A DNA stretch of 64,000 nucleotides from an uncultured Candidatus Binatia bacterium (GCA_965218425.1 OZ244621.1:4395498-4459497); one strand, 5' to 3'; shown: positions 1 through 64,000, numbered from the stretch's first letter. Numbers are program-made.

Positions 1-3000
1 CAGATGGGTATCGTTAATGGGTACCCAATAATGAACCGTCATCCCGTCCATCCCACCGGGTATGAACCCCTGGCACGGCATCACGAAATTGGTCACGCGA
101 AAGAGGTTGGTGTCTACCCTTGTCTTCCGGAGCGAAATCATCCTAACTCCGTAATCTGTTTCGGCAGCCTCAAGCTTCGGCGCGCCGTCTGCCGCATAGC
201 CTTCGTTTTCGAACCCCACAGCCCCAGCATGGAAGGATCTGTGAAGATAGGAAAGATGAGATGAATCACAGTCTCCCTCGAGACCTTGAAGGTAATTGCA
301 ATCGAGCAATACTTTAGTTACATAAACGTGGTCCTCGGGCATCGCAGCCCACTCATAGTTGGGAAATAGAGGTATCTCTTCTTGCGGACCCATATAGGCA
401 AACACGAGGCCCGCCACTTCTTTGCAAGGATAGGCTTTATGGTGAATCTTCTTTCGAAAATCGCTTCCTGGCGGTTCCGCGGGGGTCTCCAGGACGTTCC
501 CTTTCACATCGTATTTCCAGCCATGATAGATACATCGCAGGCCGCAATCCTCGTTGCGCCCATAATAGAGGGATGTGCCTCGGTGAGAACAGTGCTCGTC
601 TAGGAGTCCCACCCTTCCCTGGCTGTCTCGAAAGGCCAGGAGCTCCTCACCCAGCAACCTCACCTGTACCGGCGGGCAGTCTGGCTCGGGAATTTCTTCC
701 GACAACACTGCCGGGATCCAATAGCGCCGGAACAATCCACCCATAGGTGTACCGGGCCCGGTGCGAGTTAAGAGTTCATTTTCTACATTTGAAAGCATCG
801 ATGCAGGACTAAATCACTCGCTTGGATTTTCAAGAACCTCTCGAAATTATTTCCTCTTCTTAAAACCGGTTATTATTTGTAGATCCTCTATCATTTTTGG
901 AGGCAGCGAATGAATTTGTTCAACTCCCTTCTCGACCTGCCGCCATGTACATGGGTAACATTCAATCTGGATTTTTTGGCGTCTTTCAGAAACTGTGGAT
1001 CTTTCATGGTGGCCGCAAAGGCCTTGCGCAGGATATCCAGCCGATCCTTAGGCGTCCCCGGAGCCACCGAATAGGGCTTGGTTATCTCATTCTTCGCATT
1101 AAAAGCATTCCATTGGGTTAATGTCCTCTCATTCTTGATGACCTCATGAAAGAACGGGATATTCTTGACCTCCGGATCGTTCCATTTTTTCGTCATTACA
1201 AAGGGGATGAACTTGTCCTCACCCTCCGCACCCAGCATGGACTTCGCTGTAACCCTCATGGACTCCCAGGTCCAACAGGCCGCGTCCGCTTCCCTTGATT
1301 GCATGGCCAAAGGCATCCTGGCTGTTCCTGCGTACCCGGTGATTACTCTAAACTTTGTTCCCAGGGCTCGGTTCAGGAACTTGGGCGGCTCCGTCGTGTT
1401 CCCAGGCGCCCTAGTGGCAGGGACCTCAGGGTCCTACCTGACTTCACGATGTCGTCGAGGGATTTTAGGCCTGTGTGACCCATAATGCCACAGGTAATTG
1501 TCTCGGTCGTGGGGGTGCCAAGCCAGCCCAGCTCCCGTGGATCAAACTTTACCTTCTTGTCCCCCAACGCATGACCAAGAATAATCCCTGGAGTCCAAAC
1601 TGCTACAGTTAGCCCGTCTGGCCTGGCTCGGTCGGCGTTATAGTTCGCGGCGATCAGACTTCCTGCTCCAGTCATGTCCATCACCACAGGGGTAGGATTT
1701 CCCGGAGTATACTTGCCAATATGACGGGCAATAGCCCGTGTGTAAGTGTCGTAGCCTCCACCTGGGGAAAAGCCCACAATGAAGCGCCTGGTCTTGCCTG
1801 CATAAAAGTCAGCACCGAACGCCGGGGTCGAAGCACCGAAAACTAGCACCAGGCCAAGTAGAAAGTAGGAAAATTTCGCATTCGTAATATATTCCTTCTT
1901 CATATCATAAAATGGCAAAAAAACCAGCGCACCCTAACGGCACACAATTGCAGAGTGACTGGTGTTAAGTTTTTTTCTTCATTGTCCCCTTCACGGAACA
2001 AATACCATCCGTTAAGCCTCACATCGGGTTAGATGCTTTAGAAATAATGATGGAGAACTGACATGCTACGAGCTAAGGGGCCCTATATCAATCATAGAAA
2101 TTTGTGTCAACGGGGGCTTTGAATTGTTGGGAGGAAGTAATCTAGAAACCATAGAGCCGAAGCCAGCGCCTTAAGTTACCCCAGAAGGTTCTTGCCGCGA
2201 ATTCGTGGGACCCGTAACAGAACCAGCGCAGCCAGGAGAACTACCATTGAACCCATTACGGTAACGGTGATGGGCGCACTGAAATAGTGCGCTGCGACTC
2301 CTGCGGCAAAGGATCCCATCGGGGTAAGTCCCCGTTCAAGCAAGAAGAGGCTATTCACACGCCCCCGGAGCTCATCCGGCACGGTCAATTGTACCATGGT
2401 GTTTTTGATGGCCCCGAACAGGGCATGGAACCCTCCTACCCCCATAAGAGCCACTAAGGCAAGCGACAAGGAAGTGGATTGGGAAAAGAAAATTAGCGAA
2501 AGACCCAAAAGCGTCATACAGCCCAGTAGAAACAAGCCCTTCCGTACAATGCCGCTTGCGATGGTGGCTAATAATAGCATTCCCCCCACGGCCCCCAAGC
2601 CGGGTGCGGCAACCATAAAACCGAGTCCTTCGGGGCCCACCCCCAACACGTCTTTTTGAAAGATCGGCATCAAAGCCTGGTGCGGCATGGCGAAGACCGC
2701 AGGAACCAAAGCCACAACCATGATGGTCACCACCATAGGATTGGACCACAGATAACCAACCCCTTCTCTAAAATGCGTTATGACCGACGATTTTTTACCT
2801 ACGGCTTTTACCGGAGCTAGGCGCAATGAATAGGTCACCAGCGCGGCACACGCGGTCACTGCGCTTTCAACAAACAAATTCCCAGCGGCACCGAACAAGG
2901 GAATCAAAAAACCACCCAACACAGGCGCAATGACCCTGGTGGTGTTAAAGGCACCGAAATCCAATGCCACTGCGTTCATGAGTTCTTCTCTGGGCACCGT

Positions 3001-63000: not shown

Positions 63001-64000
63001 ACGGATTTATTGGCCCCAACGGCGGCATGCGATTGGATGACTTCAACGGCAATAACTTCGACCATGCCGGCCTGGGATTTATCCGCGGAGGCACAATCGG
63101 AACCAGTGGCGGCGGTGCACCCATCGAGCGATGCGATGTCATTCCACCGGGTTGGCCCCGTTGGGGGGAAAAGTACAAAGAAAATCTCGCTCGCTACTAC
63201 ACCCGGGGCTTCGATGTAAGCATACACCCCGAGACCCTCGCCCATAAGGACAACTTTGTGGACCTGGACCCGGTGCGAAAAGACGCCTGGGGAGTTCCAC
63301 TGCCCCGTGTTACCTTCGACTTCCACCACAACGAGCACCGCGTGTGGCGCTACATCGGTGAAAAGTCGGAAGGAATCATGCGGGAGGCAGGCGCGAGCCA
63401 TGTTTGGACAAAACCAAGTAACCGTGGCAGCCGTTGGGCCGGCGGAACACGCATGGGCGATGATCCGAAAAAGTCGGTGGTCAATGGCTACTGCCAGACT
63501 CACGACGTGGAAAATCTCTTTGTGGTGGGCTCTGCGGTGTTTCCCACCATGACTGGCTATGCCGCCACGCCCACAGTGAGTGCCCTTGCGTACCGCACTG
63601 CGCAGTATATCAAATCCAACGGGAAGCTGGTCGGCTAGGATAACCTACCATCAGGGAACCCTCTACGGGTTCCTTCGGTGCAAGATCACGCTTCCCTGAA
63701 CCGGCTAGAATTATCTTTTAGCAATCTAACTCGGTAAAATTTTCATTTAGGTCGGCCAACCTCACTCCCGATTACCCGCGTTCACCGGGGAGCACCCGGT
63801 TTGCAACGGGGGCCAGCCATCAGAAAGTTTCGGAACCCTGGATGAATTCTGATTTGGCTTTTTCAACCGCAACCTTGACACCTTTTTCTCGTGTGATAGG
63901 GAGAGAACTCTTGTCACAGTGTCGAATAACGGGAGATTTGTAATGGAGAGCCAAGAATTCGTACAAGAATTACTGGGCATTGTAAGAGACTTTTGCCGAA

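Follow-up and report, generated by a model that had tools for sequence, protein, structure and literature searches.

The genome of an uncultured bacterium labelled Candidatus Binatia (G000; 4.46 Mb, 4369 genes, 97% completeness) is poor in transcription factors (TFs), and this poverty is real, not an artefact of annotation. One-component regulators are scarce throughout the whole order, a derived trait, and the proteins that switch genes, in this genome and in its order, amount to roughly a tenth of the number expected for genomes of this size. Domain counts, their distribution over relatives, an enrichment of housekeeping-type promoters and the remains of receiver genes are described below. 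As an explanation, we give about even weight to the reading that the order lost its one-component TFs, expanded its catabolism and may now express most of it constitutively under global tuning.

Regulator repertoire

Regulators were counted by six-frame HMM and Pfam searches over the whole 4,459,497-bp contig, at E<=1e-3 unless stated and independently of gene calls. These returned three TetR_N, one GntR, two HTH_IclR, one Trans_reg_C and two MerR_1 matches, together with four HTH_1 (LysR) matches above the cut-off and one weak match, and five MarR matches above the cut-off (seven at E<=0.01, cross-hits included). The single HTH_18 (AraC) match is Ada, which joins HTH_18 to a methyltransferase DNA-binding domain. 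GerE, LacI, HTH_5 (ArsR), cNMP_binding and GGDEF gave no six-frame match anywhere in the genome. HTH_3 (XRE-type) gave ten six-frame matches, and at least five of the 11 XRE proteins found overall are HigA antitoxins adjoining HigB. The tally comes to ~25 intact non-XRE TFs and 11 XRE-type proteins. Also encoded are STAS and PII proteins and a CarH-like MerR that carries a B12-binding domain. Sigma70_r2 matched ten times, and four sigma-70-type genes are 500-620 aa long. An earlier note had listed LysR 4, TetR 3, GntR 1, AraC 1 (Ada), IclR 2 and HisKA 7, with zero for GerE, LacI, cNMP-binding, GGDEF and chemotaxis (MCP) domains, and the gene-call-independent searches reproduce all of these figures; its nine sigma-70 genes compare with ten in six frames and its 12 receivers with 16 matches at 13 loci, seven of them intact, and each family searched agrees within one or two.

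By the same six-frame method, 14 families sum to 33 matches in the focal genome and 234 in E. coli K-12. The depletion is visible in LysR (4 against 46), GntR (1 against 30), AraC (1 against 28), GerE (0 against 20), OmpR-type (1 against 18), TetR (3 against 12), LacI (0 against 14), IclR (2 against 7) and GGDEF (0 against 18), whereas MerR (2 against 5), HTH_3 (10 against 18) and the sigma-70 family (10 against 6) are not depleted.

Regulators increase almost quadratically in number as genomes grow, which is one of the most robust regularities of bacterial genomics and is usually explained by every added metabolic module requiring its own switch. Near-quadratic scaling of TFs with gene number was reportedly described by van Nimwegen in 2003, as cited by Charoensawan et al. 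The available portion of the latter paper (Charoensawan et al., 2010; PMC2995046) treats the same quantity, namely sequence-specific DNA-binding TFs per genome with sigma factors excluded, and gives logT = 1.98 logG - 4.84 as the fit over 449 bacteria. Applied to 4369 genes, this published fit yields ~233 expected TFs against ~25-37 seen (33 in the earlier count), which puts the focal genome ~0.85 log10 units under the fit and far from the scaling law. The earlier proposal that this genome is an extreme outlier is upheld by this distance and by the comparison with E. coli.

The 64-kb window

The window is the whole stretch of 64,000 nucleotides, and its features are collected in Table 1. A Pfam scan of its 72 ORFs found no LysR-, TetR-, GntR- or MarR-type one-component regulator. 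The XRE-type protein (six-frame match at genome 4415119-4415226) is the sole candidate for a DNA-binding regulator in the window, and the FIST protein is a putative sensory domain without DNA-binding output. The Rieske/LigXa gene is a member of an 80-gene Rieske family and has no adjoining regulator; the Amidohydro_2 pair comes from a 120-gene family and lies in a cluster without a regulator gene. The sigma-70 paralog, whose six-frame match (genome 4413563-4413769) lies in an open frame of 541 aa, is among the four long sigma-70-type genes, and the consensus promoter motif stands upstream of it and of a small gene at 19094-19384. The receiver fragment, which a local receiver HMM matches over positions 10-72 of 112 (frame at genome 4403841-4404254), is probably a pseudogene. 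The IS cluster forms part of a heavy IS load genome-wide.

Table 1. Annotated features of the 64-kb window, with positions counted from its first nucleotide.
Feature	Position	Strand	Support or remark
Window, last 64 kb of genome	1..64000	.	~72 ORFs
Rieske/LigXa-type oxygenase, runs off window start	1..798	-	Rieske 2.1e-16, LigXa_C 8.7e-19
Receiver fragment, 77-aa ORF	8344..8760	+	Response_reg 1.6e-11, profile 11-69 of 111
Two Amidohydro_2 genes (10035-11162 and 11177-12322)	10035..12322	-	Pfam 4.7e-33, 6.2e-23
MFS transporter adjoining Amidohydro_2 pair	12332-13504		Pfam 3.3e-47
Large group-1/2-type sigma-70 paralog, regions 1.2, 2, 3, 4	17562..19067	-	Sigma70_r2 4.5e-21, r3, r4, r1_2
Perfect-consensus promoter motif, TTGACA, 17-nt spacer, TAnnnT	19506..19534	-	Pattern scan
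291-aa protein, N-terminal XRE-type HTH	19601..20476	+	HTH_3 2.6e-05, residues 8-43
FIST N + C domain protein	36122..37309	+	FIST 3.5e-37, FIST_C 4.2e-18
tRNA	45130-45201		Only Rfam match in window
IS3-family (rve + HTH_Tnp_1) and Mutator transposase cluster, some truncated	45332..54798	.	Pfam
Transposase ORFs of IS cluster	45332-46413, 48775-49946, 50932-52047, 52681-53795, 53815-54798		Pfam

Distribution across the order, class and phylum

All 41 genomes of the order that were searched (2.5-7.1 Mb, complete genomes of 4-5.9 Mb among them) hold between one and seven TetR_N matches, against 2-64 (median 21) in 61 genomes from sister orders of the same class. Expressed as density this is 0.7 per Mb in the order and 5.0 per Mb in the sister orders, and the correlation of TetR number with genome size is also lower within the order (Spearman 0.31 vs 0.64). 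Family f64 is likewise poor in TetR. The order-wide TF poverty claimed earlier is borne out by these counts. LysR was rejected as a marker of the order and is not diagnostic, since low numbers of it (0-10 in 91 genomes) are found throughout the wider phylum. A search with RpoD against genome contigs gave matches of 36-62% identity only, in Polyangia, Syntrophobacteraceae, Geobacteraceae, Bdellovibrio, Acidobacteria, Rhizobiales and others, with no close relative among the matches listed.

Our literature searches found no paper on TF poverty in this lineage. The account of Binatota by Murphy, 2021 (PMC8262859) contains no occurrence of the words transcription, regulator, two-component, sigma or chemotaxis, and the available part of a preprint on chernozem (10.1101/2025.11.25.690425) mentions Binatota for metabolism only.

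Catabolic and uptake families

Paralogs were clustered all-against-all from 4284 ORFs of a crude gene caller (~84% coding). The 40 clusters with at least ten members contain 1187 genes, of which 128 are IS-related and 1059 encode enzymes or uptake proteins, in line with the expansion of catabolic and uptake families that had been claimed before. The clusters include Amidohydro_2 (120), solute-binding proteins (SBP; 104), bicupins (85), Rieske proteins (80) and UbiD (72), with further uptake clusters of TctC (35), SBP_5 (14) and NMT1-like proteins (13+11+23). The genome has one 515F primer site (16S). The idea that catabolic genes are solitary was dropped, as operon tightness, measured by run length with one and the same crude caller, is 1.35 here and 1.41 in E. 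coli and does not differ.

Signalling genes and genome decay

The statement of the earlier note that signalling genes are almost absent stands for the focal genome, with its seven HisKA matches and seven intact receiver loci, but it does not extend to the lineage, because G001, a congener, yields 59 receiver matches (3.7 times the number in the focal genome), 27 HisKA and ~15 sigma-54 activators. The focal genome has two full-length sigma-54 activators and another only as a fragment. First-look receiver candidates, a rough proxy, number 8-34 in family f3, 34-100 in f2 and 22-72 in f1. MCPsignal has no match in the focal genome, in any of five f1 genomes or in any of 18 f3 genomes.

About six of the 13 receiver loci are fragments, so part of the signalling poverty is recent decay; the share of fragments in the Amidohydro_2, UbiD, Rieske, OCD and luciferase families is 1-13%. 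Other genes are broken as well: a LigXa-type Rieske oxygenase is split into three pieces, MoCoBD into four and RE_XamI into two, DctM is also split, and one LysR, next to an hpaB gene that is intact, retains only its HTH (109-115 aa).

IS-laden, recently host-restricted bacteria such as Sodalis, Mycobacterium leprae and Shigella lose regulators during reductive evolution. The focal genome resembles them in its IS expansion, its split genes and the disproportionate erosion of its signalling genes, and the whole regulator shortage could be read in the same way, as an early reductive phase in which an IS bloom and relaxed selection removed regulators first, with an outcome that is degenerative and not adaptive. 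Such a reading would draw on the 128 genes in IS-related clusters, the split genes, the receiver and sigma-54 activator fragments, the LysR remnant beside hpaB and the richer receiver set of the congener. We nevertheless regard it as unlikely. All 41 genomes of the order that were searched, the largest of 7.1 Mb, share the one-component TF poverty, which therefore predates the IS bloom of the focal genome. Its catabolic families are mostly intact and its size and completeness are unreduced, so that IS bloom and pseudogenes are present while shrinkage and metabolic loss are not: the genome measures 4.46 Mb, and its metabolism is expanded. Regulator loss in reductive evolution is also treated in the available part of a related text (bioRxiv 10.64898/2026.10.08.756896).

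Search for hidden regulators

Another possibility is that the TFs are under-counted, and that catabolic genes are individually controlled by folds invisible to Pfam or by large multidomain XRE proteins. There is room for such proteins, as the Pfam census beyond the named families covers ~17% of the focal genome and the earlier note gives ~914 unannotated genes. HTH_3, moreover, is not depleted, with ten matches here and 21 in the same-order genome G006, where some sit in frames of 372-1365 aa.

The 716,518 bp of most catabolic DNA hold 699 ORFs, 368 of which fall in annotated clusters, and a scan of 254 more found only two ligand-type TFs, one LysR and one PadR. Of these 254 ORFs, 51 have no Pfam family, but none of the 51 has an HTH match even at E<=1. 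No TF family turned up among representatives of the 150 largest paralog clusters, where the regulator-like clusters are confined to sigma factors, HigA antitoxins and HU. No unannotated family of at least three paralogs looks regulatory; the unknown clusters proved to be SBP-like, cupin, PQQC-like and TPP-subunit proteins. Searches by jackhmmer with 23 of the genome's own DNA-binding domains added one ORF only, a HigA-like XRE, and the XRE proteins themselves include the HigA antitoxins noted above. A repeated operator-like dyad was also sought in 3030 upstream regions (inverted repeats with 5-mer arms and a spacer of 0-10), where GGGGA-N5-TCCCC, present in 20 regions, was the only one to stand out, and around the catabolic promoters no operator-like conserved column was found, the flanks being diverse. 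On this evidence, which takes in a minority of the ~914 unannotated genes, individual control by hidden regulators is improbable.

Promoters of catabolic genes

The motif TTGACA-N16-18-TAnnnT occurs 229 times in the focal genome against 48 expected, a 4.8-fold enrichment. Sense-strand TTGACA is found in 491 of 3030 upstream regions (122 +/- 11 expected) and the full motif in 167 of 3030 (4.5 expected). This perfect -35 hexamer precedes 216 of 830 genes of the catabolic or uptake families (26%) and 271 of 2099 other genes (13%; OR 2.4, p = 1e-16), and under stricter filters the figures are 204/557 and 102/702 (OR 3.4, p = 1e-19).

Promoters were compared across six genomes, in which the sample counts of the GC-rich members are tiny; for G006 and G074, which are GC-rich and have poor gene calls, strand-symmetric observed/expected counts were used. 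In 400-kb samples, the full motif was observed 19 times against 4.5 expected in the focal genome, six against 9.7 in E. coli, nine against 0.2 in TF-poor G006 of the same order, and once against 0.2 in TF-rich G074 of the same class. TF-poor genomes are not alone in this enrichment, which is also seen in a 6.5-Mb delta-proteobacterial MAG with 15 TetR (13 vs 4.8 expected). Near-consensus promoters can, in addition, still be repressed. The earlier proposal of constitutive expression is supported in part, by the indirect evidence of promoter sequence. Among the sequencing runs listed for a 10-kb catabolic stretch, nine from three studies contain it, and none of these is an RNA run.

It is very improbable that a few global devices (alternative or group-2 sigma factors, sigma-54, (p)ppGpp, PII, riboswitches, sRNAs, proteolysis, allostery) switch the catabolic genes in blocks, for although the ten sigma-70-family genes against six in E. 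coli, four of them of 500-620 aa, the STAS and PII proteins, the CarH-like MerR with its B12-binding domain and the five riboswitches of the earlier note would suit such control, the promoter that is enriched is the classic housekeeping one (TTGACA and a -10 box, spaced by 17-18 nt) rather than an alternative-sigma motif, strict sigma-54 promoter patterns are not enriched (four upstream vs two in the background), and no extra motif common to the catabolic promoters was found.

A proposed route to constitutive catabolism

In the reading that we prefer, the order would have shed most of its ligand-sensing one-component TFs (the TetR, LysR, GntR, AraC, LuxR/GerE, LacI, Crp and ArsR types), a loss accompanied by growth of the catabolic and uptake paralog families. 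A pathway-specific regulator would be lacking for most catabolic genes, and a large share of them may have a near-consensus sigma-70 promoter of their own that requires no activator. From activator-independent promoters and the lack of dedicated regulators we infer that expression is largely constitutive. What control remains might be global tuning only, through the sigma-70 family, with ten factors that include four large RpoD-like paralogs, and through two sigma-54 activators, plus a few housekeeping repressors (IscR/Rrf2, DtxR, NrdR, MraZ, MerR, PadR). On top of this, the focal genome would be losing its two-component systems to erosion while IS elements expand and pseudogenes form.

A stronger form of the same reading is that a free-living order of 2.5-7 Mb gave up substrate-specific control in favour of permanent, activator-independent expression of hundreds of catabolic and uptake paralogs, each from a near-consensus sigma-70 promoter of its own, and is the first large-genome lineage to break quadratic TF scaling. 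We put this forward tentatively, as somewhat less likely to be right than wrong.

Cyanobacteria, which are phototrophs with small catabolic repertoires, combine a TF set of modest size with several group-2 sigma factors. The focal genome is like them in having several RpoD-like sigma paralogs beside a small TF set.

Relation to oligotrophs and significance

Streamlined oligotrophs are the subject for which Lauro in 2009 and Giovannoni in 2005 are reportedly cited by Noell et al. The available part of that preprint (Noell et al., bioRxiv 10.1101/2022.07.21.501054) describes non-motile oligotrophs with small marine genomes, 'always on' catabolism and few regulators. As far as that text goes, the focal genome resembles SAR11/Pelagibacter in having few transcriptional regulators and two-component systems (33 matches vs 234 in E. 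coli, seven HisKA, seven intact receiver loci), in a probable lack of chemotaxis (MCP 0), and in the many genes devoted to solute-binding proteins and transporters (SBP 104) beside a single rRNA primer site. These lifestyle markers, zero MCP, one 16S primer site and very many solute-binding proteins, fit an oligotroph, and an oligotrophic rationale for constitutive expression may follow from them. The genomes themselves differ. SAR11 is streamlined at 1.3-2 Mb, whereas the focal genome is neither small nor streamlined, with 4.46 Mb (2.5-7.1 Mb in the order), an IS-rich sequence, split genes, ~84% coding density and ~1000 catabolic and uptake paralogs; and constitutive catabolism has been measured in SAR11, whereas here it is read from promoter sequence. 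Because they are small and streamlined, SAR11-type genomes stay near the scaling curve. Always-on catabolism with few regulators is thus already known from small oligotrophs, and our data suggest a large-genome version of it.

If the catabolic genes are always on, the strategy of an 'unregulated oligotroph', known from very small marine genomes, would extend to large genomes from soil or groundwater. The presence of a transcript would then not imply the presence of its substrate, and the metatranscriptomes of such taxa would need a different reading. The lineage may also supply native promoters that are strong and free of regulators, coupled to numerous enzymes of aromatic degradation. This clade adds modules in bulk but no switches, whereas in the sample studied the genomes of its sister orders gain TetR-type switches as they grow, and so the explanation of the scaling law can be tested within one class. 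If the reading is true, the lineage, with regulators uncoupled from genome size, would be a natural test of why the TF scaling law exists.

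Regulator repertoire

The genome is a single contig of 4,459,497 bp (97.3% complete, 1.3% contamination), with 4284 ORFs in a crude gene call (84% coding) and ~48 tRNA genes (aragorn). The 515F universal 16S primer site is matched just once across the 4.46 Mb, an indication of one rRNA operon. Families were counted by six-frame Pfam HMM searches, independent of gene calls, with E. coli K-12 and relatives as controls by the identical method wherever possible. Summed over 14 DNA-binding families, this genome has 33 matches vs 234 in E. coli (23 vs 216 without HTH_3), and MCPsignal gave none here. 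The counts behind the earlier note's claim of almost no transcription factor (TF) or signalling genes were re-obtained within 1–2 for every family searched.

Matches to regulatory families in six-frame searches
Family	This genome	E. coli K-12
LysR (HTH_1)	4 over cut-off, 1 weak	46
GntR	1	30 (24 over cut-off)
AraC (HTH_18)	1 (Ada)	28
GerE	0	20
Trans_reg_C	1	18
MarR (E<=0.01)	7 (5 over cut-off)	18
HTH_3	10	18
HTH_24	4 (one new locus only, Lrp/AsnC)	16
LacI	0	14
TetR_N	3	12
IclR	2	7
MerR_1	2	5
HTH_5 (ArsR)	0	2
cNMP_binding	0	3
Sigma-54 activator	2 full-length, 1 fragment	~13
Response_reg	16	38
HisKA	7	21
GGDEF	0	18
Sigma70_r2	10	6

Scanning the neighbourhoods of 20 regulator loci, together with sampled loci, gave ~25 intact sequence-specific regulators, to which Fur, LexA, CopG and others, outside the genome-wide search, may add a few. 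These are three LysR, three TetR, three MarR, two IclR, two MerR (one CarH-like with a B12-binding domain), two Rrf2, two sigma-54 activators, one each of GntR-FCD, Lrp/AsnC, DtxR/IdeR, PadR and OmpR-type, and Ada, NrdR and MraZ. Eleven further XRE proteins include at least five HigA antitoxins adjoining HigB. The fit logT = 1.98 logG - 4.84 (449 bacteria, R2 0.87; Charoensawan et al., 2010, PMC2995046) predicts ~233 TFs for 4369 genes, and on that fit the genome is the outlier that had been proposed.

Among individual loci, the MerR-family protein fused to a B12-binding_2 domain adjoins dxs; we take it to resemble the CarH/LitR type, and it may switch isoprenoid synthesis in response to light or B12. 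The fourth LysR is cut to its HTH (109–115 aa), without the substrate-binding domain, and directly adjoins intact hpaB and dienelactone-hydrolase genes: the pathway regulator has decayed and the pathway genes remain. Four sigma-70-type genes of 500–620 aa are RpoD and three large paralogs, with counterparts in G001, a genome of the same genus.

Coordinates of features (L, locus; C1, contig of G006, a genome of the same order)
Feature	Local position	Genome position	Strand	Basis
MerR/B12-binding_2 protein	L195:3078-3608	1969357-1969890
LysR remnant	L182:3049-3375	2795055-2795384
SWIB/MDM2 protein	L026:13006-13317	~1987366-1987677
Topoisomerase VI subunit A/Spo11 homolog	L013:5724-6827	~103397-104500
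515F site		1138023
Large sigma-70-type genes		3334718, 574611, 3174473
Large sigma-70 paralog	window 17562-19067		minus	Pfam
XRE-type HTH protein, 291 aa	window 19601-20476			Pfam
Receiver-domain fragment	window ~8344-8760			Pfam
FIST protein	window 36122-37309			Pfam
IS3 and Mutator transposase genes, dense nest	window 45-55 kb			Pfam
IS3 copies	window 45332-46413, 48775-49946		opposite
N6/N4 DNA methylase, truncated	window 47191-48531
MetE-like gene, N- and C-terminal ORFs	window 29496-30224, 30315-30605
Long-frame HTH_3, examples (G006)	C1:2965272, 2756206, 3281537

Distribution among relatives

The TF poverty is common to the order, as the earlier note had held, with TetR_N at 1–7 in 41/41 order genomes searched (2.5–7.1 Mb, three families). 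In a class-wide sample, TetR_N numbered 1–5 in 10 order genomes vs 2–64 (median 21) in 61 genomes of other orders. Its density is 0.7 vs 5.0 per Mb, and its correlation with genome size is weak inside the order (Spearman 0.31) and clear outside (0.64), with p-values that are overstated because the genomes are related and not independent. Named comparators had 26 (Ancylobacter), 18 (an Acidobacteriaceae MAG) and 13 (a Desulforhabdus MAG). LysR is scarce across the wider phylum (0–10 in 91 genomes) and is therefore not diagnostic. The only other low-TetR family in the class-wide sample was f64, of another order (G142, G163, G170, G184, G191 and others), with 2–10 TetR in most members and genomes up to 6 Mb; this may reflect independent or shared loss.

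Among the relatives examined, the poverty goes furthest in G006 (complete, 4.0 Mb), with no LysR, GntR or AraC, one TetR, one GerE, one OmpR-type regulator and six receiver matches. Its HTH_3 matches (21) do not fall short of those in E. coli, and several lie in open frames of 620–1365 aa that could be multidomain XRE-type regulators. No description of TF poverty in this lineage was found in the literature, and the text of the Binatota genome paper has none of the relevant words on regulation. The matches given by an RpoD search were all distant, to 'delta-proteobacterial' and other lineages.

Signalling poverty, also part of the earlier claim, holds for this genome by its low HisKA, GGDEF and MCP counts, but not across the order. 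Receiver matches number 59 in G001, of the same genus (6.0 Mb), beside 27 HisKA and ~15 sigma-54 activators, and 60 in G039 (7.1 Mb), beside ~27 activators, 12 cNMP-binding and seven GGDEF matches. MCP genes occur in 9/18 genomes of one family of the order (f2), 0/18 of another (f3) and 0/5 of f1, to which the present genome belongs. A local receiver HMM found 13 loci here, seven intact and six broken by stops, frameshifts or truncation, of which one (0.74 coverage) may be intact after all; the window holds one further fragment. Fragments make up 6% of Amidohydro_2, 1% of UbiD, 13% of Rieske, 8% of OCD and 11% of luciferase-like genes. Receiver fragments, the IS load and split Rieske, MoCoBD, XamI and DctM genes at sampled loci point to ongoing decay in this genome, added to the older, order-wide TF poverty.

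Catabolic expansion and the search for hidden regulators

Expanded catabolic and uptake families (~900 genes in the earlier note) were borne out by all-against-all blastp (single linkage, E<=1e-10, 60% coverage), which gave 152 clusters of at least three members (1687 genes) and 40 of at least ten (1187 genes), the latter chiefly enzymes and uptake proteins, as Pfam showed for representatives drawn from the 150 largest. The sizes include Amidohydro_2 120, SBP 104, bicupin 85, Rieske 80, UbiD 72, ABC ATPase 51, SDR 44, permease 39, TctC 35, molybdopterin dehydrogenase 32, OCD 27, luciferase-like 26 and LigB 22, and five IS-related clusters hold 128 genes.

A hidden expanded regulator family is not supported by these sequence searches. 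The representatives included no classical TF family, the only regulator-like clusters being ECF sigma, RpoD-like sigma, HigA and HU (four members each), and clusters unmatched at 1e-8 could be assigned, once thresholds were relaxed, to SBP-like, cupin, PQQC-like or TPP-subunit proteins. To sample catabolic neighbourhoods, 38 loci of 20 kb were picked so that each paralog family was represented; together they make up 716,518 bp (16% of the genome) with 699 ORFs, 368 of which belong to annotated clusters. In 254 further ORFs (60–420 aa), ligand-type TFs amounted to a single LysR and a single PadR, found along with IscR, Ada, NrdR, MraZ, one sigma factor and an HTH_17 protein of 62 aa; the 51 without a Pfam match gave no HTH or other DNA-binding family at E<=1. 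Jackhmmer, run over all six-frame ORFs with 23 DNA-binding domains from this genome as seeds, recovered 27, of which only a HigA-like XRE was new. Single regulators of novel fold, as one-off proteins rather than an expanded family, could still be present. The genome also encodes a 104-aa SWIB/MDM2 protein (E 4e-27), a chromatin-associated domain unusual in free-living bacteria, and a topoisomerase VI subunit A/Spo11 homolog (Toprim 1e-60), uncommon in bacteria.

Within the window, which is the last 64 kb of the genome, Pfam on 72 ORFs found no classical one-component family (LysR, TetR, GntR, MarR and the like), and no regulator adjoins its genes for catabolism and uptake (Rieske/LigXa, two Amidohydro_2, two MFS). 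Rfam found one tRNA only. With transposase ORFs of 269 aa that score identically in Pfam, the two IS3 copies enclose the DNA-methylase gene in a layout like a composite transposon, and the apparently split MetE-like gene (Meth_synt_2) is probably a pseudogene.

Promoters and mode of expression

In 3030 upstream regions, the top enriched 8-mers all include TTGACA, which occurs on the sense strand of 491 (122 ± 11 expected, first-order Markov model) with a -10-like signal 17–18 nt downstream of the hexamer. TTGACA-N16-18-TAnnnT occurs in 167 of these regions (4.5 expected) and 229 times on both strands of the genome (48 expected). Copying of promoters was ruled out, because the flanks differ between paralogs. 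TTGACA precedes 216/830 catabolic and uptake genes (26.0%) vs 271/2099 others (12.9%; OR 2.4, p = 1e-16), and 204/557 vs 102/702 with the set restricted to ORFs of 250 aa or more and upstream regions of 100 bp or more (OR 3.4, p = 1e-19). By family it precedes 32/100 Amidohydro_2, 22/60 UbiD, 29/81 SBP and 17/62 Rieske genes. Neither an operator-like column around the promoters nor a recurrent dyad was found in the upstream regions. In 400-kb samples of six genomes (both strands), the full motif numbered 19 here (4.5 expected), 9 in TF-poor G006 (0.2), 13 in a 6.5-Mb delta-proteobacterial MAG (4.8), 8 in the Acidobacteriaceae MAG (4.5), 1 in G074, TF-rich and of the same class (0.2), and 6 in E. 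coli (9.7), a ranking unchanged with a relaxed motif. A tie between motif enrichment and TF poverty is suggestive only, since it comes from six genomes with small counts, and one genome of typical TF content is enriched as well.

The simplest account has three steps. Most one-component regulators would have been lost in the order; many catabolic and uptake genes would be driven from predicted near-consensus, activator-independent promoters; and the cell would rely on few global devices, the four large RpoD-like sigma factors among them. The constitutive expression proposed earlier gains from the enrichment of such promoters at catabolic and uptake genes, from which we infer it. An 'always on' strategy has been argued for non-motile marine oligotrophs (Noell et al., bioRxiv 10.1101/2022.07.21.501054). 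The genome here differs from theirs in being large and IS-rich, but resembles them in its lack of MCP genes, single 16S primer site and abundant binding proteins, and the three-step account would match their strategy.
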